DNA of 64,000 nucleotides from Lutibacter sp. (GCF_016342705.1 NZ_JAEINV010000006.1:103344-167343); one strand, 5' to 3'. Counted from the first letter of the stretch, positions 15,753-63,198 are shown. The notes: generated by a model not told the origin, from the letters alone. Numbers and translations are program-made.

Positions 15753-15798
15753 ATGAAGTTATGTAAGGTAGTTTTTCAAATATTAAATAACTTTTAAA

Positions 15799-15933
15799 AT
15801 GAAAAATTTAATTTTAAAAATAGCAATTTTAACTCCTCTAATACCAATAGCACTCTTTATTATAGGCATTTTTATACTTTCTTATGTTGAGTATGTAATT
15901 ATGATTTTTAAATTGTATTCACAAGTTTTATAA
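15799..15933 (+). CDS. Small hydrophobic ORF (44 aa) with N-terminus similar to 15519 ORF
   Basis: Manual translation MKNLILKIAILTPLIPIALFIIGIFILSYVEYVIMIFKLYSQVL. Confidence 0.45.
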   Translation: MKNLILKIAILTPLIPIALFIIGIFILSYVEYVIMIFKLYSQVL

Positions 15934-16083
15934 AATACTTAATTTTATAAATTACAATTAGCTATTATTTTACAAAATTGTAGGTTAATAATTTACAATA
16001 AATGTTTTTATTAACATTTATTTAAGATGAATTCAGTGATATGTTAAATATTTTAGCACTCTGTATTCATACCAAAATCTACA

Positions 16084-18498
16084 ATGAAGAAATTCATCAT
16101 CCTTTTTTATATACTTTTTCAAGTAAACGCTAGTGCTCAAATAAATGTAAACCCAAAATCTATAAATGCTTTAAGAATTTCATCCCAGCCAACCATAGAT
16201 GGTGTTTTAGATGAAACTTTCTGGAAAAATGCAGATACTGCTAAAGATTTTATAATGTTTAGGCCAGGAATTGGAACTATTGAACCCAGCGGTAAAAAAA
16301 CCGAAGTAAAAGTAATTTATGATGATGAAGCAATTTATTTTGGCGCATTATTATATGATGATGACATAAAAAATATTCCTTTAGAATCTGCAACTAGAGA
16401 TAATTTTGCCCAAACAGATTGGTTTGGAATTATGCTAAACCCTTTAAATGACGGGCAAAACGATACTGAATTTTTTATTCAAGCTACAGGAAATCAAGGA
16501 GATGCAAAAGCATCTATTAACGATGAAGATTTTTCTTGGAGCGCCGTTTGGGAAAGCGCTGTTAAAATTGACCACGAAAAATGGGTTATTGAAGTAAAAA
16601 TACCTTATTCAGCTTTGCGTTTTTCAAATCAAAATGTTCAAACTTGGGGATTAAATTTTCACCGAAGAATGCAAAGCACTAAAGAGCAATATACTTGGAA
16701 TCCAATAGATAAAACAAAAGGAAACATTCAACAATATGCAGGTATTTTAAATGGTATTGAAAATATATCTCCTCCTATCCGATTAAGTTTTTTCCCGTAC
16801 ACATCCTCATCATATTCTATGTATAACGGTGAAAATAGTTTTGATACAAATTTTGGTATGGATGTAAAATATGGAATCAGTGAAAGTTTTACATTAGATG
16901 CTACATTAATTCCTGATTTTGGCCAAACCGCATTTGATGATGTTACGTTAAACTTAGGACCTTTTGAACAACAATATTCTGAAAAAAGAGCCTTTTTTAC
17001 AGAAGGAACAGAATTATTTAGTAAAGGTAATTTGTTTTATTCCAGAAGAGTTGGAAACAGGCCTTCCACCCAAATTGATGAAACTGATTTAGGTTCTAGT
17101 GAGGAAATTTTAGAAGAACCGGCTGACGTGAAAATGCTAAATGCCTTAAAAATTTCTGGGCGTACTAAAGGAGGTTTAGGAGTTGGCTTTTTTAATGCCA
17201 TAACAGAGAAAGCTGAGGCTAAAATAAAAAATAATGACACTGAAGAAATAAGAAAAGTTGTGCTTGAACCATTTGCTAATTACAATGTATTAGTTATTGA
17301 TCAACAATTCAATAAAAATTCATCCGTGAGTTTTGTAAATACAAGTGTTATGAGAGAAGGATCTTATAGAGATGCGAATGTTTCTGCATTACTTTTTGAT
17401 TTAACCAACAAAGCAGATAAATTTAAAATTGAAGGTGGCGGTGGAATGAGCTATTTAAATGAATTTGATGAAACTACCAAAGGTTTTTTTACAGATATTG
17501 CAATAAGAAAAATTAGCGGAAACTGGCAATATGGTCTTGAACATCATTTACAAGATGATAAATTCAATAAAAATGATTTAGGCTTCCAGCGAAGAAATAA
17601 TTTTAGCAATTTTGAGTCTTACCTTAGCTATCAAACATTTGAACCAACAGAAAAATTTGACAGTTATAATATGTCATTTTGGGTAGATGTAGATTATTTA
17701 TACAAACCAAATACCTATACAAGTAATGAAATAGGAATGCGTTACGTTTTTCAAACTAGAAAATCTAAACTTGCATTTGGTGGAATGGCAGAAACTTCTA
17801 TTGGTAACCAATTTGATTATTATGAACCAAGAGTTGCGGGTAGATTTTATAAGAAACCAGGAAGAATAGCAGGAAATCAATGGATTTCTACAGATTACAG
17901 AAAGAAATTTGCCTTTGATGCCAACTTTTTTATAGCATCTAGATTTAACGATGATAATTATTATATTGAAACTAGTTTCTCTCCACGCTATAGAGTAAAC
18001 GACAGACTTTCTTTTATTTACAACTTAAATTTTTCAACAGACACTAACGACAAAGGTTTTGTAGATCTTTTAGATGATGATTCCATTATTTTTGGAAAAA
18101 GAGATTCAAAGTCATTTACCAATGCCATTTCTGGGAAATATAATTTTAGCACAAAATCTTCTTTAAACCTTACATTTCGTCATTATTGGTCGCCTGTTGA
18201 ATATGATAATCAATACTATTTGTTAAATAATGAAGGATTACTTATTAAAAACCCGTATTCAGCAAATCATGACATCAACTACAATATTTGGAATTTTGAT
18301 TTAAGCTACTCTTGGGAGTTTGCGCCTGGAAGCCAACTAATTGCCTTGTATAGAAATTCAATTTTCAACGAAGATCAATTGGCTGATTTAAATTTCAAAG
18401 AAAATTTAGACAACTTATTTGATGAATCTATGTTTCATAATTTCTCCTTGCGCTTAGTATATTATATTGATTATAATAAAGCTAAAAATTGGTTGTAA
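16084..18498 (+). CDS. DUF5916 / CBM9-like outer-membrane protein
   Basis: Signal peptide, PTIDGVLDE, EVKIPYSALRF, LDATLIPDFGQ, YSEKRAFFTEG. Confidence 0.8.
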   Translation: MKKFIILFYILFQVNASAQINVNPKSINALRISSQPTIDGVLDETFWKNADTAKDFIMFRPGIGTIEPSGKKTEVKVIYDDEAIYFGALLYDDDIKNIPLESATRDNFAQTDWFGIMLNPLNDGQNDTEFFIQATGNQGDAKASINDEDFSWSAVWESAVKIDHEKWVIEVKIPYSALRFSNQNVQTWGLNFHRRMQSTKEQYTWNPIDKTKGNIQQYAGILNGIENISPPIRLSFFPYTSSSYSMYNGENSFDTNFGMDVKYGISESFTLDATLIPDFGQTAFDDVTLNLGPFEQQYSEKRAFFTEGTELFSKGNLFYSRRVGNRPSTQIDETDLGSSEEILEEPADVKMLNALKISGRTKGGLGVGFFNAITEKAEAKIKNNDTEEIRKVVLEPFANYNVLVIDQQFNKNSSVSFVNTSVMREGSYRDANVSALLFDLTNKADKFKIEGGGGMSYLNEFDETTKGFFTDIAIRKISGNWQYGLEHHLQDDKFNKNDLGFQRRNNFSNFESYLSYQTFEPTEKFDSYNMSFWVDVDYLYKPNTYTSNEIGMRYVFQTRKSKLAFGGMAETSIGNQFDYYEPRVAGRFYKKPGRIAGNQWISTDYRKKFAFDANFFIASRFNDDNYYIETSFSPRYRVNDRLSFIYNLNFSTDTNDKGFVDLLDDDSIIFGKRDSKSFTNAISGKYNFSTKSSLNLTFRHYWSPVEYDNQYYLLNNEGLLIKNPYSANHDINYNIWNFDLSYSWEFAPGSQLIALYRNSIFNEDQLADLNFKENLDNLFDESMFHNFSLRLVYYIDYNKAKNWL

Positions 18499-35795: not shown

Positions 35796-36266
35796 TTAAT
35801 TTAACCAAGAATTTAACATCCATATTGTTTTTTCTTGTTCAGCAATAAAATCGCTCATCATAGAATTTGTTCCTTCATCATTTGCTTCACCAGATTCTTC
35901 TAAAATAATTCTTTCAATTTTTATTAATTCTGCTAAAGAATTTACTACTAATTGAACTGCTTCAGTATCTTTTGATATATTTTTTCCAACTGGTACTTTT
36001 GCCATTTTGGTATAATCTTCAAAAGTATGCAATGGATGACCACCTAAAGTAAGAATTCTTTCAGCAATCATATCAATTTTTTCTTGAGAATCTGTATAAA
36101 ATTCTTCAAACTTCACATGTAATTCAAAAAAAGATTTCCCTTTTATATTCCAATGTAACCCTCTTAAACTCTGATAATATACTTGAAAATTTGCTAGTAA
36201 ATCATTTAAGCTAATTACTAACTTATCTGCTTTTTGTTTGTTTAAACCAATAATTGTTGTGTTCAT
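35796..36266 (-). CDS. dps: Dps ferritin-like protein
   Basis: LHWNIKG..FFELH..FEE, D.IAERI. Confidence 0.93.
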   Translation of the reverse strand: MNTTIIGLNKQKADKLVISLNDLLANFQVYYQSLRGLHWNIKGKSFFELHVKFEEFYTDSQEKIDMIAERILTLGGHPLHTFEDYTKMAKVPVGKNISKDTEAVQLVVNSLAELIKIERIILEESGEANDEGTNSMMSDFIAEQEKTIWMLNSWLN

Positions 36267-36370
36267 ATTTTTTATTTTTAATTTCTATATCAAATATCGT
36301 TAATAATATCTGTTATTTATTATAAGTAATATTGATTCTTTTAATATCTTTATCAAAAAAATTTATACCA

Positions 36371-37318
36371 ATGACAATTACACAACTTAAATACGTTTTA
36401 GCGGTTGCTGAATACCAAAATTTCACTGTTGCCTCAGAACACTGCTTTGTTACCCAACCAACATTAAGTATGCAAATTCAAAAATTGGAAGAAGAATTAG
36501 ATACTCAAATTTTTAACAGAAATAAAAAACCAATTCAATTAACTGAAGTTGGTGCAAAAATTGTTGAACAAGCAAAAATAATTGTTGATGAAAGCAATAG
36601 AATTACAGATATAGTTGAGCAACAAAAAGGCTTTATTGGTGGTGATTTTAAATTAGGTATTATTCCTACTATTATGCCAACACTTCTTCCTTTATTTTTA
36701 AAAACTTTTATAAAGAAATATCCGAAAGTTAATTTAAAAATTGAAGAATTAACTACAGAAGAAATAGTAAAAAAATTAAGTGATGGACATATAGATGTTG
36801 CTATAGCTGCGACACCTTTAGAAAATGAGTCAATTAAAGAACGTGTTTTATATTACGAACCTTTTGTTGCATTTGTACCTACAGAACATAGACTTTTTGT
36901 CAATAAAACCATTGATGTTGCTGATTTAAACATTGACGATATTTTATTATTAGAAGATGGCCATTGCTTTAAAGAGAATATTATTAATTTATGTAGTGCT
37001 TTGGGAAATAAAAATTCTCGTTTTCAATTACACAGTGGAAGTTTTGACACACTTATAAAACTATCTAAAGAAGGTTTAGGGATGACTTTACTACCTTACT
37101 TGCAAACCTTAGAAATTAATGAAAAAGATAAAATGTATTTAAAAGAATTTAAAGATCCTATACCTGCAAGAGAGGTCAGTTTAATTTATCATAAATCTCA
37201 ATTAAAAATACATATGATAGATTCCTTAAAAAATGTTATAGATAGTGTTATTAGAGGCGTAATTGCCTTTAGTGATGTTAAAATAATTAGCCCTATACAA
37301 CAAAAAAAAGGAGCTTAA
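36371..37318 (+). CDS. oxyR: OxyR-type LysR regulator
   Basis: MTITQL..CFVTQPTLS, LEDGHCFK..C redox motif; divergent from dps; ATG 36371 preferred. Confidence 0.88.
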   Translation: MTITQLKYVLAVAEYQNFTVASEHCFVTQPTLSMQIQKLEEELDTQIFNRNKKPIQLTEVGAKIVEQAKIIVDESNRITDIVEQQKGFIGGDFKLGIIPTIMPTLLPLFLKTFIKKYPKVNLKIEELTTEEIVKKLSDGHIDVAIAATPLENESIKERVLYYEPFVAFVPTEHRLFVNKTIDVADLNIDDILLLEDGHCFKENIINLCSALGNKNSRFQLHSGSFDTLIKLSKEGLGMTLLPYLQTLEINEKDKMYLKEFKDPIPAREVSLIYHKSQLKIHMIDSLKNVIDSVIRGVIAFSDVKIISPIQQKKGA

Positions 37319-48639: not shown

Positions 48640-49287
48640 TTATAGAATCTGAATTAAATCTACAGGATTACTTAATAAATATTTAGCTCCATTTGAAATC
48701 AATTCTTCTTTTGGTCTAAAACCCCATAATACGCCTACTGCAAACATATTTGCATTATTTGCAGTTTGCATATCAATACCAGTATCTCCTATGTAAATTA
48801 TTTCTTCAGGTTTTATTGCTAAGGTTTTACTTATTTCTACTGCTACAAATGGATTTGGTTTTTTAAGTTTTTCATTACTCAAACCAACTACTGGATTAAA
48901 ATAGTTAGGAAATAAAGCATGTGTAATTTTCTTAGTAAACTCATCAGACTTATTTGATAATACACTTAGTTTAATATTGCGAGAAATTAAGTTGTCAAGT
49001 AATTCTATAATTCCATCATATGGTTTTGTTTTACGAGTACAATTATCGCGATATACTTCAATCATAGCATGGAAACAACAATCAATTTGTTTTTCATTAT
49101 TATGTGCTAATGGTAGGGATTTACTTACAAGACTTCTAATTCCACTACCAATAAAACTTTGATGTTCTTCATAGCTATGAGTAGGGTAACCATAGCTTTG
49201 AAGCACCATATTCATTGAATCTGCAATATCTTGAAGTGAATTAACTAGTGTTCCGTCTAAATCAAAAATAACTCCTTTAACCTTCAT
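48640..49287 (-). CDS. HAD family hydrolase
   Basis: FDLDGTL, LSNK, KKPNP, YIGDTGID. Confidence 0.9.
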   Translation of the reverse strand: MKVKGVIFDLDGTLVNSLQDIADSMNMVLQSYGYPTHSYEEHQSFIGSGIRSLVSKSLPLAHNNEKQIDCCFHAMIEVYRDNCTRKTKPYDGIIELLDNLISRNIKLSVLSNKSDEFTKKITHALFPNYFNPVVGLSNEKLKKPNPFVAVEISKTLAIKPEEIIYIGDTGIDMQTANNANMFAVGVLWGFRPKEELISNGAKYLLSNPVDLIQIL

Positions 49288-49345: not shown

Positions 49346-49472
49346 TTTCCCAATAAGATTTGTGCATTTGGAAAATCGGAGATTTTTCTGCCGTAGCAAA
49401 TCGTTAGTTGAATGTTTGTCGTTAATGTTAGTTCGAATGTAAGCATAAATTATATGAGTTGTTGTGCGTAGG
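49346..49472. repeat. attC-like element E1 (left end carries a 10-nt deletion)
   Basis: 102/108 nt identical to E2; TTTCCCAATAAGATTTGTGC equals the E3 left end minus CGTGATTTTA. Confidence 0.75.
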
Positions 49473-49479
49473 TTTTATT

Positions 49480-49893
49480 CTAAATTTTTGTTTTTAATTC
49501 ATTAATTCCCTCTTTCAGCTCTCTTATAAATTTATCAATATCATCATCTGGATAAACATAATATAAAGTGCAATTATTTTCTTCACATAATTGTTTTTTC
49601 CTTTCGTCTCTTTCTTGTCCTTTTTTGAATGCGGTTTCACCTCCGAAATATTCAATTGGTTTTTGATGCTGTGTGCCTTGATATTCAATTGCAATATTTA
49701 ATTCGGGAATGAATATATCAAAATGTTGCAAACCAAGCCATTTAGGTCTTCCGTGGTGAACTACAATATAATCTTTTAGAGTCTTTTTTATTTTATAATA
49801 TAATAGAGTTTCTGATATCCAACCTTCTCCAATTTTAGGTAATTCTCTTTCTTCTCTAATTTCATCTTCGATACTTCTAATCTTAAATTTCAC
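49480..49893 (-). CDS. PD-(D/E)XK / Vsr-like nuclease domain (probably C-terminal part of a frameshifted gene)
   Basis: HFDIFIPELNIAIEYQGTQH..RDERKK..C motif; its frame stays open 22 codons upstream of the GTG. Confidence 0.6.
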   Translation of the reverse strand: MKFKIRSIEDEIREERELPKIGEGWISETLLYYKIKKTLKDYIVVHHGRPKWLGLQHFDIFIPELNIAIEYQGTQHQKPIEYFGGETAFKKGQERDERKKQLCEENNCTLYYVYPDDDIDKFIRELKEGINELKTKI

Positions 49894-50678
49894 AATTTTG
49901 AAAAGAGGCGTGTGAGTTTCAGGTAAATCAATTTTATAATATTCAAAATTTTTTTGCCTATTTTACTAGGATAAAAACAAGGCAAATCATAACTATTGTA
50001 AGTTACTGCATTATGAGTATTGTTTCTATCCACTGTGGTCATATGATGACTGTCATCACCATAAAATTCCAATTTAGAATCTGTAACTCGCCAAAGATTT
50101 TTTTTATTTTTATAATCAATCGCAACTATTTTAGGAAATAGGTCTAACAAATAGTTTAGGAATTCTTTTCTCTTAAATTCTTCAAAAGTAAATTTCTCAA
50201 TGTTTGGGAAAAATTTATAATAATATTCATAATAAATACTAAACCCAGGAAATTGAGTAGACTCAAAGTGCTTTTCTAATTTATCATAGATATTTGTACT
50301 TATGTCTTTTTTAGAGAATTTATTATACCAAGGAATTATCGAGCTAATATTTAGAGTATATAAGACTTCATTATTAATTACATTTTTATTATATTTTCTT
50401 TCGTACCAATGATAAAACAACAGATTATTAGTTTCTTGAAACTGACGGTTTAATAAAGTGTTTTCTAATATAATTTCAAAAGTGTCTTTTGTTTTAGAAT
50501 GAAGCTGATTTATTAATTTATGCTCATCTAATAGACCAAAATATTTTAATTGTGCTTTATCGATTTTTTCAATAAAATCTTCCTCTGAAATAGCTAATCT
50601 TTTAGATGAATATTTAGGATAGTAAAATCCTTCCTTTAATTTAATTTCATCAGATATTTTTTGGTAATTAGTTGTCAA
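49890..50678 (-). pseudogene. N-terminal part of probable ~400-aa frameshifted cassette gene
   Basis: One extra A in the A7 tract (T7 at 49949-49955) fuses it in frame to 49480-49893. Confidence 0.5.
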
Positions 50679-50706
50679 TTTTATTTCATTTGAGTTTTTT
50701 TAACTT

Positions 50707-50840
50707 ACGCACAACGTGATTTTATATGATTTGTGCGACTGGAAAATCGGAGATTTTTCTGCCGTAGCAAATCGCTTGTTGAATGTTTGTCGTTAATGTT
50801 AGTTCGAATGTAAGCATAAATTATATAAGTTGTTGGCAGC
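50707..50840. repeat. attC-like element E2 (intact)
   Basis: CAAC..TTATATGATTTGTGC / GCATAAATTATATAA..GTTG imperfect inverted repeat, 134 bp, 2 nt from a stop codon. Confidence 0.8.
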
Positions 50841-50842
50841 TT

Positions 50843-51712
50843 TTAATTTTCTTCTAGTTCTTTTAATGGAGTTCCATTTTCTGTAATCCATTCGGTATAT
50901 CCGTTCGAATTTCTTCCTAAAATCATATTCGATGCGGCACTTGCGCTTGAAAAAATTGTATCCTCGACAAATTCGTAAAACTCTCCGTTGTCTCTTAAAA
51001 TCTTTGTGTCTAGCAATTTTTGTCTTAAAGTTCTATAAGTTATTGTACAAGATTTTGATAAATTTTTCTTTGCTTGAGATCCTTGAGTTACAATGAAACC
51101 TTGATTGGCAATGTACATATTTGCATTTATCTTACTGCTATTTATTTTTAATAGAATTTTCTTTTGTTCTTTAGTTGGCTCTTTTTCGGTTTGTTTTACA
51201 ATTGAAGATATTAAAAATCTAAAACCCATTACAGGCAAAATCAGTTTCAATTGGTCAAGAAAATATTCCATATCTGAAATATCTGCCTCGTGTAAAGTTG
51301 GTAGTGAAGGAGTTGTGTTATTTTCGATTTCGGCTGTTCTTGAATCAATCGCTAATTGAACTAATCTTGATTCTAAATATTTGATTTGAGTTTTTGTAAG
51401 TAAATCATCTTTGCTAATAAAGAAAATTAATTCTACGAAATCTTTCTTAGAATTCTGTAAATGTTGTTTAATTCTCGTTTTAACATTTTCAGCTTCTCCG
51501 ATATATATTTTTTCTTGAAATGAATCTGAATCCGAATTACTTTTTAAACAATAAATTCCAGGATTGTCGAATTCAGGTCTGTCAATAACTTGTGAAATCA
51601 TTGTTCTCGGAGAATAGAAAGCTTTTCCTACCCAATTTCCGATTTCTGCAATTCTCGGACCATATTCAGTTCCATCTAACATAAAAATCGTTAATTTCTT
51701 TCCTCTAGCCAT
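50843..51712 (-). CDS. GIY-YIG nuclease with C-terminal DUF4357
   Basis: PGIYCL..YIGEAE..RIKQH, YLESRL; F.S.SAAS..ILGRNSNG..EW. Confidence 0.8.
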   Translation of the reverse strand: MARGKKLTIFMLDGTEYGPRIAEIGNWVGKAFYSPRTMISQVIDRPEFDNPGIYCLKSNSDSDSFQEKIYIGEAENVKTRIKQHLQNSKKDFVELIFFISKDDLLTKTQIKYLESRLVQLAIDSRTAEIENNTTPSLPTLHEADISDMEYFLDQLKLILPVMGFRFLISSIVKQTEKEPTKEQKKILLKINSSKINANMYIANQGFIVTQGSQAKKNLSKSCTITYRTLRQKLLDTKILRDNGEFYEFVEDTIFSSASAASNMILGRNSNGYTEWITENGTPLKELEEN

Positions 51713-51756
51713 TTTTTTGTTTTTGAATTTATCTTTAAAGTTACACAGTTTTTATT

Positions 51757-51891
51757 ACTCCCAACGTGATTTTATAAGATTTGTGCGACATAAAAATCGT
51801 AGATTTTTCCGCCGTAACAATATTTTTATTGAATGTTTGCTAGTTTCTGCTAGTTCCAATTTAAGCAAAAAATTTATGCGGTATTAGTAAC
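51757..51891. repeat. attC-like element E3
   Basis: CAACGTGATTTTATAAGATTTGTGCGAC..AAAATC..AGATTTT as in E2; 135 bp; right core ATTAG. Confidence 0.7.
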
Positions 51892-52082
51892 GTTATCTTT
51901 TATTCAGACTCGTAGTTTTCAATTGTTTTTAAAAGTCTATATATTTCAACAATGACCTCAATTGACTGTTTAATTTCTTTTTTATGCGCATCAAATAGAC
52001 TTATATATTACAAACATTGAATTTATGTAATGTTATATTTATAAAATTTAAGTTTATTTATTCGCAATAAATTTTTTATCAG

Positions 52083-52196
52083 TTAGAACATATCTGTTTG
52101 AAATATACTCATATTAACAAACACTGTAATAAGTACTACCCAAATTATAGTAGCTAATAAAAAACCTACTATAAAACTAATCCTATTTGATTTCAT
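52083..52196 (-). CDS. 37-aa hydrophobic ORF in cassette C
   Basis: Manual translation MKSNRISFIVGFLLATIIWVVLITVFVNMSIFQTDMF; ATG 39 nt after element core. Confidence 0.35.
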   Translation of the reverse strand: MKSNRISFIVGFLLATIIWVVLITVFVNMSIFQTDMF

Positions 52197-52226
52197 TTTG
52201 TGTTTTTTTTATTTATTTTCAAAATT

Positions 52227-52362
52227 ACTTACAACATTTTTTATATGATTGGTGCTACTGGAAAATCAGAGATTTATTGGACGTAGCAAATTGTTTCTTC
52301 CAATTTTCTCAGTTCGTTATTTATATTAAATGTGAGCATAAATTTTAGTAGGTTTTGGCAAT
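52227..52362. repeat. attC-like element E4
   Basis: CAAC..TTATATGATTGGTGC..CTGGAAAATC.GAGATT..CGTAGCAAAT..GCATAAATT; 136 bp; right core TTTGG. Confidence 0.7.
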
Positions 52363-52367
52363 AGTTT

Positions 52368-52904
52368 TTACCAATCTTTCTCTTTATTAGTTGTTTTTCC
52401 AGAGACATAATTATAAAACGAAAGGGATAATTCATTCATAGTTTGTTCTAAACTTGGAACAGCATCCACATACGATTTTCGTATTACACCGTCTTTTTTA
52501 TAAAAAGTCCTGTAATCGTAAAGTACTTTTTGTCCACCGGCTATAAAAAACTGACCAACGATATATTCAAATCGATATCGACCGTCCTTAAAAGAAATTT
52601 CAATGGAATATTCCATATTATAGGAATTTTGAATTCCCATTGATTTGTACCACCAAGCATTAGAAGCAAAACCATCAATTCGAATTTTTTCGTTTTCAAT
52701 ATTTGCCTTTAAAACTTTGTTCGGATTTTTATAGGTTTCTTGAACCCAGTTGAGTGCTTTATTATAAAGTTCAGCAGTACTTATATCGTCAACTTCAATT
52801 ACAATTGGTTCGACACCGTTTGGTGTTAATTTCAATTGAGGGATTTCTTGTCCAAATGACAAGTTTGATAAAATTATTGTTACTGTTAAAAGTAAATTTT
52901 TCAT
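52368..52904 (-). CDS. DUF4468-like exported protein
   Basis: Signal peptide, ELYNKALNWV..Y.NP..V, I.I.FKDGRYR. Confidence 0.7.
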   Translation of the reverse strand: MKNLLLTVTIILSNLSFGQEIPQLKLTPNGVEPIVIEVDDISTAELYNKALNWVQETYKNPNKVLKANIENEKIRIDGFASNAWWYKSMGIQNSYNMEYSIEISFKDGRYRFEYIVGQFFIAGGQKVLYDYRTFYKKDGVIRKSYVDAVPSLEQTMNELSLSFYNYVSGKTTNKEKDW

Positions 52905-52914
52905 TTTTGTTTAT

Positions 52915-53040
52915 TTAGATTGTCATTGAACCATTTCGATAAAGGTTACTATTTTTTTTCTTTTTCCCTTCATTCAACTGGACTCTTTGTTGTTTTGTTG
53001 TTTTAGGAATCACCAATTTTGGATTTTCACTTATGCTCAT
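52915..53040 (-). CDS. 41-aa small ORF
   Basis: Manual translation MSISENPKLVIPKTTKQQRVQLNEGKKKNSNLYRNGSMTI fills the gap between two co-oriented genes. Confidence 0.3.
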   Translation of the reverse strand: MSISENPKLVIPKTTKQQRVQLNEGKKKKNSNLYRNGSMTI

Positions 53041-53078
53041 TTTATCTTTTTGTCAATTTTTATAGAGATTCAAATTGT

Positions 53079-53516
53079 TTATGGTTTTTCCCAAATTCCA
53101 TTTTCTCTTATATGGCTTTCTAAGTTTTCTGATAAAATTAATAAATCATCGTTATTCAATGATTTTACAAAACTTGATTGTGTATAAGGTCTAAAACCAA
53201 TTATTTTTTTATAATCTTCATTTTTATAAATCTCAAATACTTTTAATATATCTTCCTTCTTTATATTTGATGGGCTTATTCCTTTTAATTGAATTGTATT
53301 AGTTAAAATTAACCATACGTCATAGGCAAAAACATCTGTAAGCTTATTTGGTAAAGGTGTACTATTTTTCAATCTGTAATCATAAGTTTCAATTATACTA
53401 TTGTCAGAATTAGCAGAAGCTTTAAAATTTTCTATTTTTAATAAAATATTTTTATTAGAACAATTAATAAATAATAAACTCATCAATATTAATAGTATTA
53501 TATTTGATTTTTTCAT
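53079..53516 (-). CDS. Hypothetical lipoprotein
   Basis: MKK..hydrophobic..INC lipobox. Confidence 0.65.
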   Translation of the reverse strand: MKKSNIILLILMSLLFINCSNKNILLKIENFKASANSDNSIIETYDYRLKNSTPLPNKLTDVFAYDVWLILTNTIQLKGISPSNIKKEDILKVFEIYKNEDYKKIIGFRPYTQSSFVKSLNNDDLLILSENLESHIRENGIWEKP

Positions 53517-53560
53517 CGCATTTTATTTTAGAAAGTTTAAATTATAGTTTTTAATTTTTC

Positions 53561-53690
53561 ACATTGTTAGCAACTTCTACTAACCAAACAAAAATAACAG
53601 TTTACATATTTATAACTTTACGGTTATCCGTATTGTATACCTATTTATTCATTTTTATTTTTTTAAAACAAAACGTATGAATACGTATAA
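53561..53690 (-). promoter_or_regulatory. Putative attI/Pc-like head of the array
   Basis: Lone GTTG core at 53574-53571, TATTTTTG -7 box (53596-53589), palindromes at 53619-53632 and 53673-53686. Confidence 0.45.
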
Positions 53691-54124
53691 TTAGTAAAAA
53701 AAGAAATACACCAAAATAGTAGTGGTAAAAATTAAAGTGCAGGGTGAACCTTCTTTATGTTTTGAATGTTCATAATTTTAACGGAAAATAACATGGTACC
53801 TCAGTAAAATTTAGTACTTTTTACCTTATAAAGTTTATTTTAAAAATCTACTCCTAAAATAGTCACTTTATAAATTATCTACTATTTTTTTAAATTAGTT
53901 GTACATTTATTTTAAAGTAAATGTACATATATTTTAATAATAATTGTACAATTATTATTTACAATCACAGGTGCTTTTACAAGAAAGTACGGGTGCTTTT
54001 ATAAAAAAGACGAAGTGTTTTTGTAAAGTTTTATAAAGGCCTTTATATATTTTGCTAAAAAAGTTTCCTTATTAAACAGCAAAGCACCTAAATAACGTAT
54101 TCATAATGAGATAATAAGCTGTAT

Positions 54125-55360
54125 TTATTCAAACTTAATTGCTTTTACTGGGCTTATTTTAGATATAATAATTGTTGGAATTATAAGCATTAATAAACAT
54201 AAAATTAAAGTACCAAAATTTAAGAGGATTATATACCCAAAGTTTAAATAAATTGGTGCTTCACTTACATAATACGTTTCAGGGTTTAAGGTTATTACAC
54301 CAAAATATTTTTGAATGAATAAAATTGATAAACCTATTAAATTTCCCCAAAACAATCCTTTTACAATTAAATAAGCGGCATTGTACAAAAACACCTTTCT
54401 TATACTTACATTGCTCCCTCCTAGCGCTTTAAGAATCCCAATCATTTGGGTTCTTTCCAAAATCAGCACTAATAAGGCTGTAATCATATTAATGCCTGCA
54501 ACTAAAATCATAATTACAATTATTAAATACACATTATTATCAAAAAGGCTAATCCATTCAAAAATAGCAGGATATTTTTCAACAATACTTTCACTATTTA
54601 ATGTAGAGCCCGTTTGCATATAAATTTCGTGACTTTTAGGTATAATTTCATCAAAATCAGTAATTAACACTTCAAAACCTCCCACTTCATCATCATTCCA
54701 TCTATTCATTTTTTGAATATGTCTAATGTCACCTATTACAAAACTTTCATCAAACTCCTGAAAACCGGAATTATAAATCCCCACAATTTTTACCACACGA
54801 ATCCACGGTGCTTTTGTTGGATCATTTTTTACAAACAGAATGTTAAATTCATCTCCTAATTTCAATGCCATTCTATCAGAAATTACTTTTGATATTAACA
54901 CATCATTAGAAACTTCACTGTCATAATTGGGTAATTTTCCTTCCACTAAGTACTCTTCAAAAAAGCTCCAATCGTACTCGTTGGCCACACCTTTTAAAAT
55001 AATGCCTTCAAAATCAGTGGCAGTTCTAATAATTCCCGCTTTTGTAGCAAAAACCTGCACATTTTTAATGTTTGAAACTGTTTGAAAGGTTGGATAAAAA
55101 TCTTGTTTTTTTGAAACCGGAATTAAGGTAATTTCAGAATTATTATTATCAAAATTAGTAATTTGAACATGTCCGTTAAAACCTGCTAATTTTTCACGTA
55201 TTTTTTGTTGTAAGCCAATTCCTGTTGCAATGGCAATCATCATAATAATCATTCCTAAGGCAATTGCTATAATGGCAATTTTTATTATTGGAGATGATAT
55301 GCTACTTTTATACTTTTTAGCAGCAATAATACGTTTTGCAATAAATAATTCGTAATTCAA
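54125..55360 (-). CDS. LolC/E (FtsX-like) ABC permease
   Basis: MNYELFIAKR, ILERTQMIGILKALG, four-TM architecture. Confidence 0.88.
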   Translation of the reverse strand: MNYELFIAKRIIAAKKYKSSISSPIIKIAIIAIALGMIIMMIAIATGIGLQQKIREKLAGFNGHVQITNFDNNNSEITLIPVSKKQDFYPTFQTVSNIKNVQVFATKAGIIRTATDFEGIILKGVANEYDWSFFEEYLVEGKLPNYDSEVSNDVLISKVISDRMALKLGDEFNILFVKNDPTKAPWIRVVKIVGIYNSGFQEFDESFVIGDIRHIQKMNRWNDDEVGGFEVLITDFDEIIPKSHEIYMQTGSTLNSESIVEKYPAIFEWISLFDNNVYLIIVIMILVAGINMITALLVLILERTQMIGILKALGGSNVSIRKVFLYNAAYLIVKGLFWGNLIGLSILFIQKYFGVITLNPETYYVSEAPIYLNFGYIILLNFGTLILCLLMLIIPTIIISKISPVKAIKFE

Positions 55361-56616: not shown

Positions 56617-57058
56617 ATAAAACGCATTATACATTGAAAGAGATCCAAAACTTGTATATATTCAACAAAATTCCGTTCATTTAAGAAATCTACAGAATCA
56701 TATAACGTAATTTATTACTCCATTACCTACCAAATACTTCTTTTTCTAGCCATTGGATTTTTTTTCTGAAATTCAATTAAATAGGTTACCTATTATTTAT
56801 AGTGTTTTTTTATTTATATCTAACGCTTAAAAACTTTATGTAATTACAATGCTCAAAATTATGTAAGTAACTACACACCTCTTTTATTTCTTTTTAGAAA
56901 ATTTATAGTGGTAAAAATCAATGAGAAAAATATTAATTCTTCTTATTTATAATATCCTACATTCTTATTAAAGGCTTTTAACCCTAATTTAAAAAAATAA
57001 ACAAAAATATTTTAATTTTAAACACCTTGTAAATCAACTGTTTGGATTGTTTTTATAA

Positions 57059-57128
57059 ACAAATGGTAAGTTTTTTATAACAAATGGTAGATTTTTCTTG
57101 TTTTGTATTATTTTATTTTTTACATTTG
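57059..57128 (+). promoter_or_regulatory. Direct-repeat operator plus -7 box (copy 1)
   Basis: ACAAATGGTA at 57059 and 57080; TACATTTG at 57121. Confidence 0.6.
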
Positions 57129-57261
57129 AATATCAATAATTAAATAAAAACCCAATAATTTAACCCCAAACACAAATAAATCAACCCTAATTATTTAAAC
57201 CCCAAAACCCCAAAGACAAATAAATCAACCCTAAATTTCTAAACCCCAAAACCCCTCAAAA

Positions 57262-57765
57262 ATGAAAACTTCATTCCTTAACCTCCTAGCCCTATTCGCT
57301 GTTTCTACCATTTTATTTTCTTGTTCTCCAGCAGATGATGGTATTTATTTTGAAAATAGTGAAGTTGTTAATACTACTAATGTCACTTATACTACTATGG
57401 AAAATGACATTTTAGCTTTAGTAAATGCCCACAGAACTAGTTTAGGATTAACTTCTTTAGCACCGTTAGATATCATTTCTGGCGTAGCTGATGGACATAC
57501 AGAATACATGATTGAAGTAGGTAGTGTTAATCATGATAACTTTAGCCAAAGAGCTCAAAATTTAATGGATAATGCTGGTGCAAAAACAGTTGGTGAAAAT
57601 GTAGCTTACGGATTCAGCACCGCTGAAGGTGTTGTAAATGGTTGGTTAAATAGCCCGGAACACAAAAGCATTATTGAAAACCCAAATTATACACATTTTG
57701 GAATTTCTACAGAAACTAATAAAGAGAACAGAAACTATTTTACTCAGATTTTTATTAAAAAATAA
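57262..57765 (+). CDS. CAP/SCP domain lipoprotein, copy 1
   Basis: Lipobox FSC; NAHR, H..YM, GENVAYG, WLNSPEH, YTHFGIS, YFTQIF. Confidence 0.9.
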   Translation: MKTSFLNLLALFAVSTILFSCSPADDGIYFENSEVVNTTNVTYTTMENDILALVNAHRTSLGLTSLAPLDIISGVADGHTEYMIEVGSVNHDNFSQRAQNLMDNAGAKTVGENVAYGFSTAEGVVNGWLNSPEHKSIIENPNYTHFGISTETNKENRNYFTQIFIKK

Positions 57766-57816
57766 AACAAATTCAATTTTTAAAAGCATTTATCTCTAAC
57801 CCCAAATATTCATATT

Positions 57817-58008
57817 ATGAAAACAACCTCAACAAAAGCAACCATATTAAAATCTCATTTAACACTCATTAAAAGTGATTTTATAAGTAAAATAACAAAA
57901 ATAGATAACACTACTAAAAGGATATACATAAATACATTAATGCCAGGTTTTAATTATACAAACCACTTAGGTGAATTAATTACTCCTAAAAAATGCATTT
58001 TATTATAG
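57817..58008 (+). CDS. Small hypothetical protein, copy 1
   Basis: 63 aa; C-terminal 29 aa identical to copy 2 despite synonymous changes. Confidence 0.7.
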   Translation: MKTTSTKATILKSHLTLIKSDFISKITKIDNTTKRIYINTLMPGFNYTNHLGELITPKKCILL

Positions 58009-58214
58009 GTTGAGTTCTAAAGTTGTCCCCACAAAAGCAGTAATTAACTGGTGTCGTTCCCACAACGGTAGTTCTAAAATAATAGAGTTTCGTTCCCACA
58101 ACGGTAGTTCTAAAAAAAAATAAAAACAAAAAAATCAAATACATCTAAAAACAACATAAGAGGAAAATTTAAGTTTAATTTTCCTCTTATTTAAAATATT
58201 TTTCTGGGTTAATT

Positions 58215-58273
58215 AGGGAAGTCTATAATTTTGTAAGGGGTTACAAAATTCATAAATGACTTCCCTTTTTTTT
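58215..58273 (+). terminator. Nested hairpin with U-tract, copy 1
   Basis: AGGGAAGTC/GACTTCCCT plus T run; inner 10-bp stem with GGGG loop. Confidence 0.65.
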
Positions 58274-58301
58274 AATTATTTAAGCTCCCCTTTTTATAAA
58301 C

Positions 58302-58382
58302 CTATTGCAGTAATTTCATCTTTAAATCTTCCACAATATAATAAGTTGCCATACAAATTTCTATGTTTTTAGTGGTTAAGCT
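58302..58382 (-). pseudogene. 3' remnant of a ykgJ-family gene
   Basis: SLTTKNIEICMATYYIVEDLKMKLLQ* vs NLTVKNTEICPAAYHIVEALKLKLPQ* of 62701-63198 (17/26 identical). Confidence 0.75.
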
Positions 58383-58407
58383 AAAAAACTATTCAATTAA
58401 AATTGTT

Positions 58408-59793
58408 TTAATCCTTTATTTCAACAACGGTAACTTCCCCATATTTTTCAGCAATAGTTTTAATTTCGGTTGCTTTTCCAACTAAAACAAATTGTAAATT
58501 TTCTGTTGGAAAATAAGTAGCAATTATTTCATTGGCTTTCACCAAGTTTAAACCATTAACATTGTTTTCAAAATTATTAATAAATGAAGCATCAAAATTA
58601 TACCAAAACATTTCTGTAAGCAGTCTTGCTAATTGATCGGTAGTTTCATAATCTGGAGGGAATTGTCCTTTCACATAATTTTTAGCAGAAGTCAATGCTT
58701 TTTCATCAATTCCATTTTGGTGTAAGGCTTTTAAAACTTCCAATGCTTTATCTATGGCTTCTTGCGTAGTTTCTTTCGCTGTAAAAGTGCTTATATAAAA
58801 AGTTCCTGCATTTTTTAAGGTACTAAATCTGCTACTTGCGCCGTATGTTAATCCACTATTTACACGTAATTCATCGTTTAACATAGAGGTGAATCTTCCT
58901 CCAAACAATGTGTTTACAACACTAATAGCAACATAATCTGGGTTATTTCTACTAATTCCTGTTGAACCTATATAAAAGGTAGTTTCGTTAGCATCGTCTT
59001 TATTAACTAATATCACCTTGCTTTTAGAAGGCTTTTTAACAGTTTCTACAAAAACATTTTCTCTAACACTATTGGTTTTCTTCCATTTTGAAAACAGTCT
59101 TGTTAGTATAGTTTTCATTTCTTTTTCTGAAAAATCTCCAACAATACTAATAGCACTTTCATTTGGAAAGTAATTGTTATTATAAAAATCTTTTACATCA
59201 TTCACTGTTAAATTACCAACACTTGCAATTGTACCACTTATGGAATTTCCATACACGTGATTGCCATAAATTAACTTTTCAAAATACGTTCCAATAACAG
59301 CTCTAGGACTTTCCTTTTTCTGCTCTAATTCTACTAACAATCTACTTTTCTCTTTTTCAAATTCTTCGGCATTAAATGTAGGATTTAACATAATTTCTTT
59401 CAGGATAGTTAAAACTTTTTCTGAATCCTTTGCTGCAAATTTTGCTGATACGCCTGCAAATTCTTTGGATGCGTAGGTATTTATATTTGCACCAATAAAA
59501 TCTATTTGTTCATCAATATTTGCTTTTGAAAAATTTTGAGTTCCGTGTTTTAAAGCCGTAGCTGTGAGTGAAGCCAATCCTGCTTTATCCGCATCATAAA
59601 TTGCTCCAGCTGGAATAATTGCCGATATACTAATTACAGGAACATCGTGTTGTTCCATTAAATTAAAAGTTAAACCATTAGGCAATTTAAAGGATGTATA
59701 TTTTGGTAATTTGTAATTCTGCGCAACTAAAGAAATATTTGTACTTACCAACAAACAAAATAGTGCTACTGTTTTTATATTTAAATATTTCAT
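58408..59793 (-). CDS. M16 peptidase, non-catalytic subunit
   Basis: LPNGL, M16 architecture without HxxEH, RVNSGLTYG. Confidence 0.85.
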   Translation of the reverse strand: MKYLNIKTVALFCLLVSTNISLVAQNYKLPKYTSFKLPNGLTFNLMEQHDVPVISISAIIPAGAIYDADKAGLASLTATALKHGTQNFSKANIDEQIDFIGANINTYASKEFAGVSAKFAAKDSEKVLTILKEIMLNPTFNAEEFEKEKSRLLVELEQKKESPRAVIGTYFEKLIYGNHVYGNSISGTIASVGNLTVNDVKDFYNNNYFPNESAISIVGDFSEKEMKTILTRLFSKWKKTNSVRENVFVETVKKPSKSKVILVNKDDANETTFYIGSTGISRNNPDYVAISVVNTLFGGRFTSMLNDELRVNSGLTYGASSRFSTLKNAGTFYISTFTAKETTQEAIDKALEVLKALHQNGIDEKALTSAKNYVKGQFPPDYETTDQLARLLTEMFWYNFDASFINNFENNVNGLNLVKANEIIATYFPTENLQFVLVGKATEIKTIAEKYGEVTVVEIKD

Positions 59794-59795
59794 AA

Positions 59796-61109
59796 CTATT
59801 CTTCTACATTTGTTTTTAATACACCAACTGTTCTATTACTTTTTGAAAAATATTTTTTTGCAACATTTTGCACATCTGCTATGGTAACTTTATTAAAATT
59901 TTCTGGAGCGTTAAACATTTTTTTATAATCGCCAAAAAACACTTCATACGTTCCAATATTGTTAGATTTTCCATCAATGGTTTCAATTTGATTATAAAAC
60001 TCCATTAATTTTTGATTTTTTACTTTTTGAAGTTCAGCCTCACTAACTCCCTCATTTTTTATCTTTTCAATTTCAACATAAAATGCATTTTCAATAGCAT
60101 CAGATGAAACATTATTATTAGCTACCGCATATATATTAAATAAATTAGGATCAAAACTATTTCCATAATCTGTGAAAACAACAGTTGCCAATTGCTGACG
60201 ATCCACTAAAGAAGCATACAACCGTGAAGATTTCCCATTTGAAAGAATGGCACTTAAAATTTTTAAAGCATAATAATCTTGGTGTTTAGATTCTGGTGTT
60301 TTATAACCAATCATTATATACGGATTTGTTACTTCCCGTTGCACTGTAATTCTTCGTTCACCGGTTTGTTTTGGTTCTACAATATGTACTTTAGGTGGTG
60401 CTGGCTGTGCTGAAATTGGTTGTAAATACTGCTCCGCCAACCTTTTAACTTCTTCAAATTTTAATGCACCAGATACTACAACAACGCAGTTATTAGGAGC
60501 ATAGTAGGTTTTAAAATAGCGTTCTAAATCTTGTTGTGTCCAATTTTTCATATCATCTTCATAGCCAATTACTGGCCAATGATATGGGTGCTCTTGAAAT
60601 GCTGTAGCTTGAAGTGATTCCGATAACAATCTCCAAGGAGAATTTTCTAAACCTGTACTTCTTTCACTTAACACCACGCCTCTTTCGCTTTCAACCATTT
60701 CAGGATCAATACTTAAACTAGCAATTCTATCACTTTCTAAATCAAAAATAACTTCTGTTGCGGATGCTGGAAACCAATTGGTGTACACCGTAACATTTTC
60801 TGTAGTATAGGCATTATTTGCACCACCGTTGTATTCCATGGTCTGATCAAAAAGTTTTGGACCATATTTTTTAGCGCCATTAAACATCATATGTTCAAAA
60901 AAATGAGAAAGTCCAGTAATTCCCTGATATTCATTTCTACTACCAACTTTATAAAATAAATACATATTGGCATTAGGAATGGAAAAATCTTCCACTACTA
61001 AAAATTTCATTCCGTTTGTTAATGTAAATGTTTTTACATCATCTGCTTTCATTTGAGCTTGGCTGGTATAGACAGCCAAAAACAATATAAAAATTACTAT
61101 TTTTTTCAT
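59796..61109 (-). CDS. M16 zinc peptidase, catalytic subunit
   Basis: YKVGSRNE..GLSHFFEHMMF (HxxEH), NAYT, ERGVVLSE; ATG 61109 preferred. Confidence 0.9.
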   Translation of the reverse strand: MKKIVIFILFLAVYTSQAQMKADDVKTFTLTNGMKFLVVEDFSIPNANMYLFYKVGSRNEYQGITGLSHFFEHMMFNGAKKYGPKLFDQTMEYNGGANNAYTTENVTVYTNWFPASATEVIFDLESDRIASLSIDPEMVESERGVVLSERSTGLENSPWRLLSESLQATAFQEHPYHWPVIGYEDDMKNWTQQDLERYFKTYYAPNNCVVVVSGALKFEEVKRLAEQYLQPISAQPAPPKVHIVEPKQTGERRITVQREVTNPYIMIGYKTPESKHQDYYALKILSAILSNGKSSRLYASLVDRQQLATVVFTDYGNSFDPNLFNIYAVANNNVSSDAIENAFYVEIEKIKNEGVSEAELQKVKNQKLMEFYNQIETIDGKSNNIGTYEVFFGDYKKMFNAPENFNKVTIADVQNVAKKYFSKSNRTVGVLKTNVEE

Positions 61110-61405
61110 AAAAAGTTTAATTACCATAAAACATTTAACGAAGTAACGAAATAATTTCTTTTTATTAGATAATTTTTCTAAATGAGTCAGCAATTTTATT
61201 CTAAATAATAATGCAGTCTCAATTAAATTTTACGCCATTTTATTAAATATGGAGCACTACTGACAAAAGAAAAAGGTATTATTTAGTTGTATTTATGATA
61301 TAAAAACTCTTTTTAAAGACTATTTAACCCTTATTTTAATAAAATAAAGAAAAATATTTTAATTTCAAAAGCCTTGTAGATCAACTGTTCTGACGTTTTT
61401 TATAA

Positions 61406-61475
61406 ACAAATGGTATGTTTTTTACAACAAATGGTAAGTTTTTCTTGTTTTATGTTATTTTATTTTTTACATTTG
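61406..61475 (+). promoter_or_regulatory. Direct-repeat operator plus -7 box (copy 2)
   Basis: ACAAATGGTA at 61406 and 61427; TACATTTG at 61468. Confidence 0.6.
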
Positions 61476-61660
61476 AGTATGAAAATTTAAATAAAAACCC
61501 AAATTAATTAACCCCCAAAACCCCGAAAGAAATAAATCAACCCTAATTACTTAAACCTAAAACCCCAAAGGCAAATAAATCAACCCTAAATTTCTTAACC
61601 CCAAAACCCCAAAGACAAATAAATCAACCCTAAATTTCTCAACCCCAAAACCCCTCAAAA

Positions 61661-62164
61661 ATGAAAACTTCATTCCTTAACCTCCTAGCCCTATTCGCTG
61701 TTTCTACCATTTTATTTTCTTGTTCTCCAGCAGATGATGGTATTTATTTTGAAAATAGTGAAGTTGTTAATACTACTAATGTCACTTATACTACTATGGA
61801 AAATGACATTTTAGCTTTAGTAAATGCCCACAGAACTAGTTTAGGATTAACTTCTTTAGCACCGTTAGATATCATTTCTGGCGTAGCTGATGGACATACA
61901 GAATACATGATTGAAGTAGGTAGTGTTAATCATGATAACTTTAGCCAAAGAGCTCAAAATTTAATGGATAATGCTGGTGCAAAAACAGTTGGTGAAAATG
62001 TAGCTTACGGATTCAGCACCGCTGAAGGTGTTGTTAATGGCTGGTTAAATAGTCCTGAACACAAAAGCATTATTGAGAATCCAAACTATACACATTTTGG
62101 AATATCTACAGAAACAAATAAAGAAAATAGAAACTATTTTACACAAATTTTCATTAAAAAATAA
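61661..62164 (+). CDS. CAP/SCP domain lipoprotein, copy 2
   Basis: Protein identical to copy 1. Confidence 0.9.
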   Translation: MKTSFLNLLALFAVSTILFSCSPADDGIYFENSEVVNTTNVTYTTMENDILALVNAHRTSLGLTSLAPLDIISGVADGHTEYMIEVGSVNHDNFSQRAQNLMDNAGAKTVGENVAYGFSTAEGVVNGWLNSPEHKSIIENPNYTHFGISTETNKENRNYFTQIFIKK

Positions 62165-62216
62165 TACAAATTCATTTTTAAAAAGTATTCAATAATTAAC
62201 CCCTAACATTAATATT

Positions 62217-62405
62217 ATGAAAACAACCTCAGAAAATGCAACGATTTTAAAATCTCATTTAACCCTAATTAAAAGTGATTTTGTACAAAAAAAAACAAAA
62301 ACAGATAACATTGACAGAATATATATAAATACATTAATGCCAGGTTTTAATTATACAAACCACTTAGGTGAATTAATTACACCAAAAAAATGTATTTTAT
62401 TATAG
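62217..62405 (+). CDS. Small hypothetical protein, copy 2
   Basis: 62 aa paralog of 57817-58008. Confidence 0.7.
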   Translation: MKTTSENATILKSHLTLIKSDFVQKKTKTDNIDRIYINTLMPGFNYTNHLGELITPKKCILL

Positions 62406-62608
62406 GTTAATTTTATAAGTTGTCCCCACAACGGTAATATTTAACCATCCACGTTCCCATAACGGTAGTTCATAAAACAAAACGTTTCGTTCCCACAACG
62501 GTAGTTTATAAAAAAAGTTACCATTAAATCAAACGTATCTAAAAACAATATAAGAGGAAAATTAAACCTAAATTTTCCTCTTATTTAAAATATTTTTTTG
62601 GGTTAATT

Positions 62609-62670
62609 AGGGAAGTCTATATGCAAATGTAAGGGGTTACACCATTGCTAAATGACTTCCCTCTTTTTTT
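62609..62670 (+). terminator. Nested hairpin with U-tract, copy 2
   Basis: Same outer stem as copy 1; inner stem changed in sequence but still pairs. Confidence 0.65.
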
Positions 62671-62700
62671 AAATTTATTTAAGCTCACCTTTTAATAAAC

Positions 62701-63198
62701 CTATTGTGGTAATTTCAACTTTAAAGCTTCCACAATATGATAGGCAGCCGGACAAATTTCAGTATTTTTAACGGTTAAATTAGCAATCTGAATAAATTTA
62801 CGTCTATCCGTATGTGGGTATTCACTGCACGCTTTTGGGCGAACATCATAAATGGTACACATATTATCTTCCAAATCTAAAAAAGAACAAGGCGCTGTTT
62901 TTAACACGTAAAAATCATCTTCATCTCTTTTTAAATATTCATTTGTAAAATCTAACACTTTCATTCTAAAATGTTTAGAAATACGTTCAATATCTTTAAT
63001 TGTAAAAATTGGACTTGTAGTTTTACAGCAATTCCCACACGTTAAGCAATCTGTTTTTTCAAACTCCTTATCATGCAAATCCTGCATTATTAAGTCTAAA
63101 TTTTTAGGCGTACGCTTTTTTAACTTTTGAAAGTATTTTTTGCTTTCTTGCTCTTTCTCTTTTGCTAATTTTGGCAATTCGTTTAAAAAATTTTCCAT
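62701..63198 (-). CDS. YkgJ-family cysteine-cluster protein
   Basis: DCLTCGNCCK, PCSFL..CTIYDVRPKACSEYPH. Confidence 0.88.
   Translation of the reverse strand: MENFLNELPKLAKEKEQESKKYFQKLKKRTPKNLDLIMQDLHDKEFEKTDCLTCGNCCKTTSPIFTIKDIERISKHFRMKVLDFTNEYLKRDEDDFYVLKTAPCSFLDLEDNMCTIYDVRPKACSEYPHTDRRKFIQIANLTVKNTEICPAAYHIVEALKLKLPQ

Follow-up and report, generated by a model that had tools for sequence, protein, structure and literature searches.

The window analyzed here is a 64,000-nt stretch of Lutibacter sp. DNA (GCF_016342705.1, NZ_JAEINV010000006.1:103344-167343) lying on a 229-kb contig (C23); its positions are given on the + strand of the whole stretch. Between a HAD-family phosphatase gene (48640-49287, minus strand) and a LolC/E-family lipoprotein-release permease gene (54125-55360, minus strand), both of them housekeeping genes outside the array, it contains four related elements, E1 to E4, interspersed with further minus-strand genes. 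An earlier note, drawn up from the sequence, had interpreted these elements as an integron-like cassette array with attC-like sites. We describe the elements and their cargo, the recombinase gene that heads related arrays in this genome and in its relatives, and the site structure from which we conclude that the interval is probably an array of mobile gene cassettes, now partly decayed.

The four related elements that the earlier note had recognized are indeed present, E1 and E2 being 94% identical over 112 nt, and their recurrence is far beyond chance. The layout of CAAC core, paired arms and GTTG core that had been ascribed to each of them is complete in E2 (50703-50844, + strand), an intact site that consists of a left box (ACTTACGCACAAC, 50703-50715) ending in CAAC, a left arm of 17 nt (50720-50736), about 80 nt between the arms, a right arm (50814-50829), the dinucleotide TT and GTTG (50832-50835), with which begins a right box (50832-50844) that overlaps the stop codon of the next gene. 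Pairing between the arms of E2 includes G-T wobbles on the + strand. The other three elements (all + strand) conform to this layout in part. E1 (49352-49473), with which the array ends, is cut short on the left: it has no left core and only part of the left arm (49352-49365), whose first bases have gone, while the right arm (49443-49458) and the right box (GTTGTGCGTAGGT, 49461-49473) remain. E3 (51754-51895) and E4 (52223-52366) each have a left box ending in CAAC (51763-51766 and 52232-52235, respectively) and have kept both arms, but their right cores have decayed to ATTA (51883-51886) and TTTG (52354-52357). With E1 truncated and the GTT cores of E3 and E4 mutated, the window's own array is a decayed, integrase-less remnant. 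The left box of E2 is the reverse complement of the right box of E1 at 11 of the first 12 positions, compared with a maximum of 9 among 407 non-adjacent pairs.

As the earlier note had stated, the cargo is co-oriented: every open reading frame (ORF) between the elements is on the minus strand, and each element either overlaps a stop codon or is found 2-7 nt beyond one. The first cassette (49480-50678) carries two ORFs, of 137 amino acids (aa; 49480-49893) and 262 aa (49890-50678), neither of which matched a family in Pfam, NCBIfam or PADLOC; they share a 4-nt overlap, as is seen in coupled two-gene modules such as toxin-antitoxin pairs. The second cassette (50843-51712) encodes a 289-aa GIY-YIG/DUF4357 protein (Pfam) that matches PADLOC PDC-S14 over its full length (1.2e-96) and is, on this similarity, a candidate single-gene phage-defense system. 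This cassette, from E2 to E3, recurs with other neighbors in two Lutibacter relatives (86% identity in G010, 81% in G005). A small ORF of about 37 aa, seemingly a single membrane helix, makes up the cargo of the third cassette (52083-52196, coordinates by eye). The head-side cargo (52368-53516) comprises a 178-aa DUF4468 protein (52368-52904), a 41-aa ORF (52915-53040) and a 145-aa protein (53079-53516) that has no family in Pfam, NCBIfam or PADLOC; neither nhmmer nor a covariance model recognized a site between these ORFs. A lone left-type box (ATTGTTAGCAAC, 53563-53575, + strand), with no arms behind it, lies 47 nt upstream of the start codon of the 145-aa ORF, a layout like that of cassette starts elsewhere, and may be the head of the array or its junction with the chromosome.

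A family of elements in Lutibacter

The earlier note had proposed a profile or covariance-model search of this genome and its relatives. Iterated nhmmer searches identified 21 copies of the element, which is about 135 bp long, in the 3.63-Mb genome, all of them antisense to the adjoining genes and abutting stop codons. The copies form co-oriented clusters on contigs C5, C6, C8, C23 (the window) and C35, and there are three solitary copies, on C3, on C18 and at 66 kb on C8. Of 24 other genomes of the genus, 23 contained matches to a covariance model of the family; the 16 genomes taken from other families contained none. At one locus on C6 (L003, about 36055-37101), two ORFs between two elements oppose all the other cargo and may represent an inverted cassette.

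A recombinase gene heads the related arrays

No integrase had been noticed in the window, and we detected no tyrosine recombinase (PF00589) either there or anywhere on the 229-kb contig. Of the two possibilities that had been raised, that the enzyme is encoded elsewhere or that it has been lost, the former proved correct: on contig C35 there is an intact gene for a 392-aa tyrosine recombinase (15658-16836) that is co-directional with the cargo and lies upstream of four elements. The best family matches of this protein are to archaeal XerA/'integron integrase' (218 bits, cut-off 220), and the IntI profile TIGR02249 reached 197 bits (cut-off 265), its match falling into two parts that leave out model positions 179-238. 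XerA (5hxy) aligns with it end to end, whereas the alignment to Vibrio cholerae IntI4 (VchIntIA, 2a3v) breaks across chain residues 213-247; the enzyme is not an IntI-clade integrase carrying the IntI-specific additional domain. It does have an extra N-terminal domain of about 100 aa that is absent from simple Xer and IntI enzymes, residues 10-77 of which were modeled as a small beta/alpha domain with a predicted local distance difference test (pLDDT) score of about 87-90. The structure model of the whole protein was poor (predicted template modeling score, pTM, 0.33), and a fold search again ranked XerA above IntI. Across the orthologs there is no variation in the catalytic residues R, K, H, R, H and Y. 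Public databases label the protein XerD or 'tyrosine-type recombinase', and separate XerC- and XerD-sized genes are present in this genome. A second tyrosine recombinase, in a 394-aa open frame, was noted on C6 (67468-67947, L005), 28 kb from the array on that contig; its match to PF00589 is weak (3e-20).

The association between this recombinase and the elements extends to other genomes. In the complete genome of the relative G023, an ortholog with 72% identity (608003-609193) is followed on the opposite strand by about 40 elements of the family, from 610214 to approximately 709000 (about 100 kb). The same adjacency and relative orientation were found in G005, G006 and G022, as well as in all eight named Lutibacter loci for which downstream sequence was available. 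The expectation that co-oriented arrays between variable genes would be accompanied by an adjacent tyrosine recombinase was thus borne out on C35 and in every relative checked. Arrays begin 20-180 nt past the stop codon of the co-directional Xer-like recombinase gene. In G023 the first cassette begins G|TTGGGTGCAATA, 37 nt past the recombinase stop codon, and this sequence pairs with the right box of the first site.

The window and the C35 array also share a segment. The interval 53905-54335 of the window, corresponding to the last 210 nt or so of the permease gene (lolE) and about 220 nt downstream, is duplicated with 85% identity at about 15170-15600 on C35, where the 430-bp copy sits directly after the recombinase gene. 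The duplication provides a historical tie between the window array and the recombinase-headed array, and suggests an old exchange between the latter and the chromosomal lolE locus. Within the C35 array there is, in addition, a fragment of an IS3-family transposase (10491-11189, L001; 232 aa, 4e-63).

Cassettes end in complementary boxes

The relation between the boxes of E1 and E2 is general. In a set of 131 elements from this genome and its relatives, an element's right flank is reverse-complementary to the left flank of the element next downstream: at least six of eight variable positions match in 37 of 76 adjacent pairs, compared with 2.4% of 12,342 non-adjacent pairs (Mann-Whitney p = 2e-15). 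Complementarity was at background both for pairs taken in reverse order and, beyond the 4-nt core, for the two flanks of one and the same element.

Cassette statistics were compiled for about 27 arrays, comprising 198 cassettes. Complementarity between the ends of a cassette extends over 13 nt, including a cassette-specific N6, and the sites between cassettes are 115-122 nt long. The median cassette is 751 bp; in 183 of the 198 the longest ORF is on the coding strand, and it fills 92% of the cassette. A cassette is one ORF with its downstream site, which is the layout of integron cassettes. Read on the strand opposite the genes, the site consists of AAT-N6-YAAC, a short spacer, a 17-nt arm, about 80 nt, the complementary arm, 2 nt and GTTR-N6-GTT, and the cores alternate in orientation along the array. 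One locus in another genus (L060) has shorter sites as well, of 79-108 nt.

A search of G023 for paired ends, made independently of the repeat family, found about 50 cassettes separated by gaps of 116-121 nt, many of which hold sites of the same length and unrelated sequence (for example, 696205-696321, 685999-686116 and 648516-648633). A more permissive version of the search, allowing one mismatch and degenerate cores, returned noise only and was discarded.

Cassettes recur among different neighbors with breakpoints at the cores, which is the reshuffling that the earlier note had predicted. Duplicated cassettes in G023 are alike from the YAAC core onward, over the site body and the gene, and diverge past the next YAAC(GG). 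Because these duplicates run from core to core, the ORF travels with its downstream site, and the crossover lies in the core or just after it. Pairs from different genomes are ambiguous as to which flanking site travels, identity being either high on both sides or at background on both. On the evidence of these comparisons, the sites are shown to bound the cassettes.

Paired arms in sites of unrelated sequence

Among 36 sites of about 117 nt that are unrelated in sequence, a 17-bp stem is kept through compensatory changes. Their paired positions comprise 468 Watson-Crick pairs, 89 G·T pairs, 5 A·C pairs and 50 mismatches, and the G·T pairs are found on the strand opposite the genes, including two that are separated by 5 nt and keep a constant distance to the core. 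The proposal that the arm mismatches are G-T wobbles on the + strand therefore holds not only in the window but also across the family and in sites that share its architecture and not its sequence. The two ends of a cassette make up a 13-bp R stem, of which position 11 is a T·G pair in 179 of 198 cases and position 13 shows covariation, being either A-T or T-A. Folding with DNA energy parameters gave the strand opposite the genes (+) the greater stability in 60 of 64 sites. The best ungapped stems contain no bulged or extrahelical bases; in their place are the two fixed G·T wobbles and a spacer asymmetry of 2-3 nt. An asymmetry of G·T pairs that is confined to one strand argues for folding of a single strand, as in attC, since a duplex would not yield it.

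The compensatory changes came from the divergent sites only. Within the main family, conservation is too high for covariation to show much (15 of 500 shuffles).

Occurrence in other Bacteroidia

Single-copy orthologs of the recombinase, with 42-70% identity, were found in 71 of 300 sampled Flavobacteriaceae genera. In 11 of 15 examined genomes of other genera the gene is followed by cassettes with site spacings mostly of 115-122 nt, and such downstream cassettes are likewise present in Winogradskyella and in an uncultured flavobacterium. Full-length homologs with 35-45% identity are encoded by 133 of 400 other Bacteroidia genomes sampled, and some of these precede cassettes with the same GTTR-N6...N6-YAAC ends.

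Flanking genes

The phosphatase gene to the left of the array was assigned by Pfam (HAD_2, 1.8e-38) and NCBIfam (phosphoglycolate-phosphatase-like). The LolC/E permease to its right is present with 70-84% identity in at least 35 of 40 other genomes of the genus that were searched. In the closest relative, G007, the contig stops 900 nt past lolE, and there is no element on that part. Farther to the right in the window (56970-62781), the first reading of the sequence had revealed a 1.4-kb direct repeat around a pair of M16 peptidase genes.

Discussion

We consider it probable that a small array of mobile cassettes, partly decayed and with no adjacent integrase, occupies the interval from 49.35 to 53.58 kb, and that it belongs to an integron-like system of the Flavobacteriaceae and, probably, of all Bacteroidia. 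The resemblance to integrons is extensive. Sedentary chromosomal integrons and CALINs (remnant attC clusters without an integrase) have the same co-oriented, mostly single-ORF cassettes that end in an imperfect inverted repeat with conserved AAC...GTT (PMC4889954, PMC9024848), and in integrons such as the Vibrio cholerae superintegron there are the same R and L stems, the same cassette-specific complementary ends and an array that starts beside a tyrosine recombinase gene. Shared features further include sites that are lineage-specific and highly similar within one host, cargo of the defense type, recombinase-less arrays elsewhere in the chromosome, and a folding strand opposite the ORFs. The 'inverted integrase' integrons of Treponema even have the recombinase co-directional with the cassettes, as here (PMC4889954). 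AAC/GTT triplets and both stems are conserved in our sites, which would presumably fold as attC sites do; the cassettes conform to the integron pattern of one promoterless ORF and its downstream site, with the crossover located to the GTT/AAC core and not to an exact phosphodiester bond; and the window's four sites, which lie within 3 kb, if accepted as attC-like, constitute a CALIN, defined by at least two attC sites in a row and no integrase.

There are also differences from integrons. The recombinase lacks the IntI-specific domain and has an additional N-terminal domain of about 100 aa. In place of extrahelical bases, the sites have fixed G·T pairs, of which two are in the L stem and one is in the R stem, together with an asymmetric internal loop. 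Pairing of the R boxes covers 13 nt, as against 7 in integrons, the core takes the form YAAC/GTTR-N6 and not RYYYAAC/GTTRRRY, and the host phylum has been reported to be nearly free of integrons (PMC9024848). Because the tests for the IntI domain and for extrahelical bases failed, we do not regard the system as a canonical integron, although it is close to the cassette logic of integrons. The interpretation as an integron-like array is supported by the cassette arrays, the sites and their folding signatures, with the refinement that the enzyme is Xer-like and without the IntI-specific insert.

Alongside integrons, the closest systems in print come from the gut. Ross et al. (2019) reported recombinase-associated acquired interbacterial defense (rAID-1) arrays from gut Bacteroidales, with a 5' XerD-like recombinase, co-directional arrays of low-GC genes and intergenic repeats 'reminiscent of integrons' (10.1101/471110). 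Their definition requires a recombinase more than 44% identical to BF9343_RS08045 and at least two co-directional genes downstream with repetitive intergenic sequences; close homologs of the recombinase (above 50% identity) were described as confined to Bacteroidales, and the report does not include site structure, crossover point or cassette boundaries (10.1101/471110). The Lutibacter arrays come from the same class, Bacteroidia, and likewise have a recombinase followed by small co-directional low-GC accessory genes and repetitive intergenic sequences. This gene-array organization is present at C35 and in the relatives, while the window's own array has no recombinase. In contrast to our arrays, rAID-1 was defined in Bacteroidales, and its cargo was characterized as immunity genes, those of the type VI secretion system and others. 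Whether the element family had been described, which the earlier note could not tell from the sequence, can be answered in part: arrays of this kind had already been reported, but in the literature searched we found no published account of arrays in Lutibacter or other Flavobacteriaceae.

A number of our results weigh against an integron-like system with folded sites. Recombination as such was not directly observed. The end-complementarity test is not significant in this genome alone (p = 0.16). Whole-element DNA folding of the main, AT-rich family was no better than that of shuffled sequences on either strand (z from -1.2 to +0.2), of 28 main-family sites only 9 had the L stem in their minimum free energy structure, and RNAalifold applied to 17 copies gave no meaningful consensus. 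An alignment of 12 regions downstream of recombinase genes revealed no attI conserved across species, homology ending at the stop codon. One cassette that is 97% identical between G053 and G023 is flanked in the two genomes by site bodies that are only 83-84% identical on both sides, which is the background level, and site bodies are mosaic, sharing blocks with different copies (7161 of L028 and 7263 of L029, in G023). Such unshared and mosaic site bodies imply either that homologous exchange or gene conversion also takes place between sites, or that both cores recombine. Finally, the recombinase does not have the IntI-specific insert of about 45 aa, which is held to be essential for attC recombination. 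Smyshlyaev et al. described this insertion as 'not fully conserved' inside their integron-like subgroup.

Several of these points would be accommodated by a system acting on double-stranded DNA, in which the YAAC/GTTR cores are alternating duplex sites of the Xer/dif-module kind and an Xer-like enzyme swaps the segments between them with no folded strand. The recombinase is Xer-like and without the IntI insert, core orientation alternates along the array, and both the mosaic site bodies and the nearly identical cassette that shares neither flanking site body fit exchange at both cores. The pdif modules of Acinetobacter, which are recombined by XerC/XerD, provide a precedent, with the same Xer-type chemistry, alternating site orientation and modules found in different contexts; however, pdif sites are 28-bp duplexes used by the housekeeping XerC/D and borne on plasmids, whereas a dedicated third Xer-like enzyme heads the chromosomal arrays described here, and their sites bear the signatures of single-strand folding. 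We consider a duplex system improbable, as it leaves unexplained the complementarity of cassette ends with their cassette-specific N6, the covariation of arms 80 nt apart and the bias of G·T over A·C pairs on one strand (89 versus 5), and no dif-type site of 11-6-11 architecture was seen.

Far less probable is an origin of the elements at the level of RNA, as a terminator or 3'-untranslated structure of the upstream gene, or as an antisense small RNA from the + strand whose folding accounts for the wobbles. The position directly after stop codons would suit such a role, and helices of RNA typically contain G·T (G·U) wobbles. These wobbles are, however, on the antisense strand, so that the mRNA would carry C·A mismatches; no terminator-like sites were detected at the elements, nor did a permissive Rfam scan of 47-56 kb return a match; and the end complementarity and the linkage to a recombinase would go unexplained. 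The sites may still have a secondary role in transcription. The least credible alternative, which we regard as largely refuted, is a repetitive extragenic palindromic (REP) or miniature inverted-repeat transposable element (MITE) spread by a transposase or RAYT-type enzyme and lodged after genes without relation to gene mobility: the elements are short, intergenic and multicopy, with terminal inverted repeats and a few solitary copies, but every copy adjoins a stop codon in a fixed orientation, antisense to the genes, they are clustered in arrays starting at one recombinase gene, it is the gene-flanking ends that are complementary while an element's own ends are at background beyond the 4-nt core, and no target-site duplications were seen.

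Returning to an integron-like system with folded sites, we envisage that the strand opposite the genes would fold into a hairpin in which an asymmetric internal loop lies between the R stem and the L stem, the latter with two fixed G·T wobbles, and that the recombinase would cut this folded strand at AA|C, equivalent to G|TT on the coding strand. Cassettes would leave as circles and enter beside the recombinase gene, as they do in integrons. In the present genome, the C35 recombinase could act in trans on E2 and on the cassette between E1 and E2.

A broader proposition, to which we give even weight for and against, is that Bacteroidia possess a widespread second kind of integron, in which an Xer-like integrase without the IntI domain recombines folded single-stranded sites and the strand is read through fixed G·T wobbles and spacer asymmetry rather than through extrahelical bases. 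On this view, rAID-1 in the gut and the arrays of marine flavobacteria would form a single system, which may be ancestral to integrons of the IntI type or may be an independent invention.

The window by itself contributes only a decayed remnant. In surveys of integrons the integrase is recognized by its extra domain, and the Bacteroidota come out nearly empty; the IntegronFinder 2.0 survey listed for Bacteroidetes only In0 elements and one complete integron, in Salinibacter (PMC9024848). Yet a recombinase without the IntI domain heads arrays of up to 100 kb that obey the cassette grammar of integrons, and its gene occurs in about a quarter of the Flavobacteriaceae genera sampled. If our interpretation is correct, gene capture would operate in a wider range of organisms and by a wider range of means, and the rule that the IntI domain is needed for recombination of folded sites would come into question. 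The rAID-1 arrays, so far poorly understood, would gain a concrete and testable model of their sites, in which the R stem has 13 bp, G·T wobbles are present and the crossover is at AA|C. The flavobacterial arrays would represent a large reservoir of marine defense and accessory genes and, perhaps, a source of a new structure-specific recombination tool.

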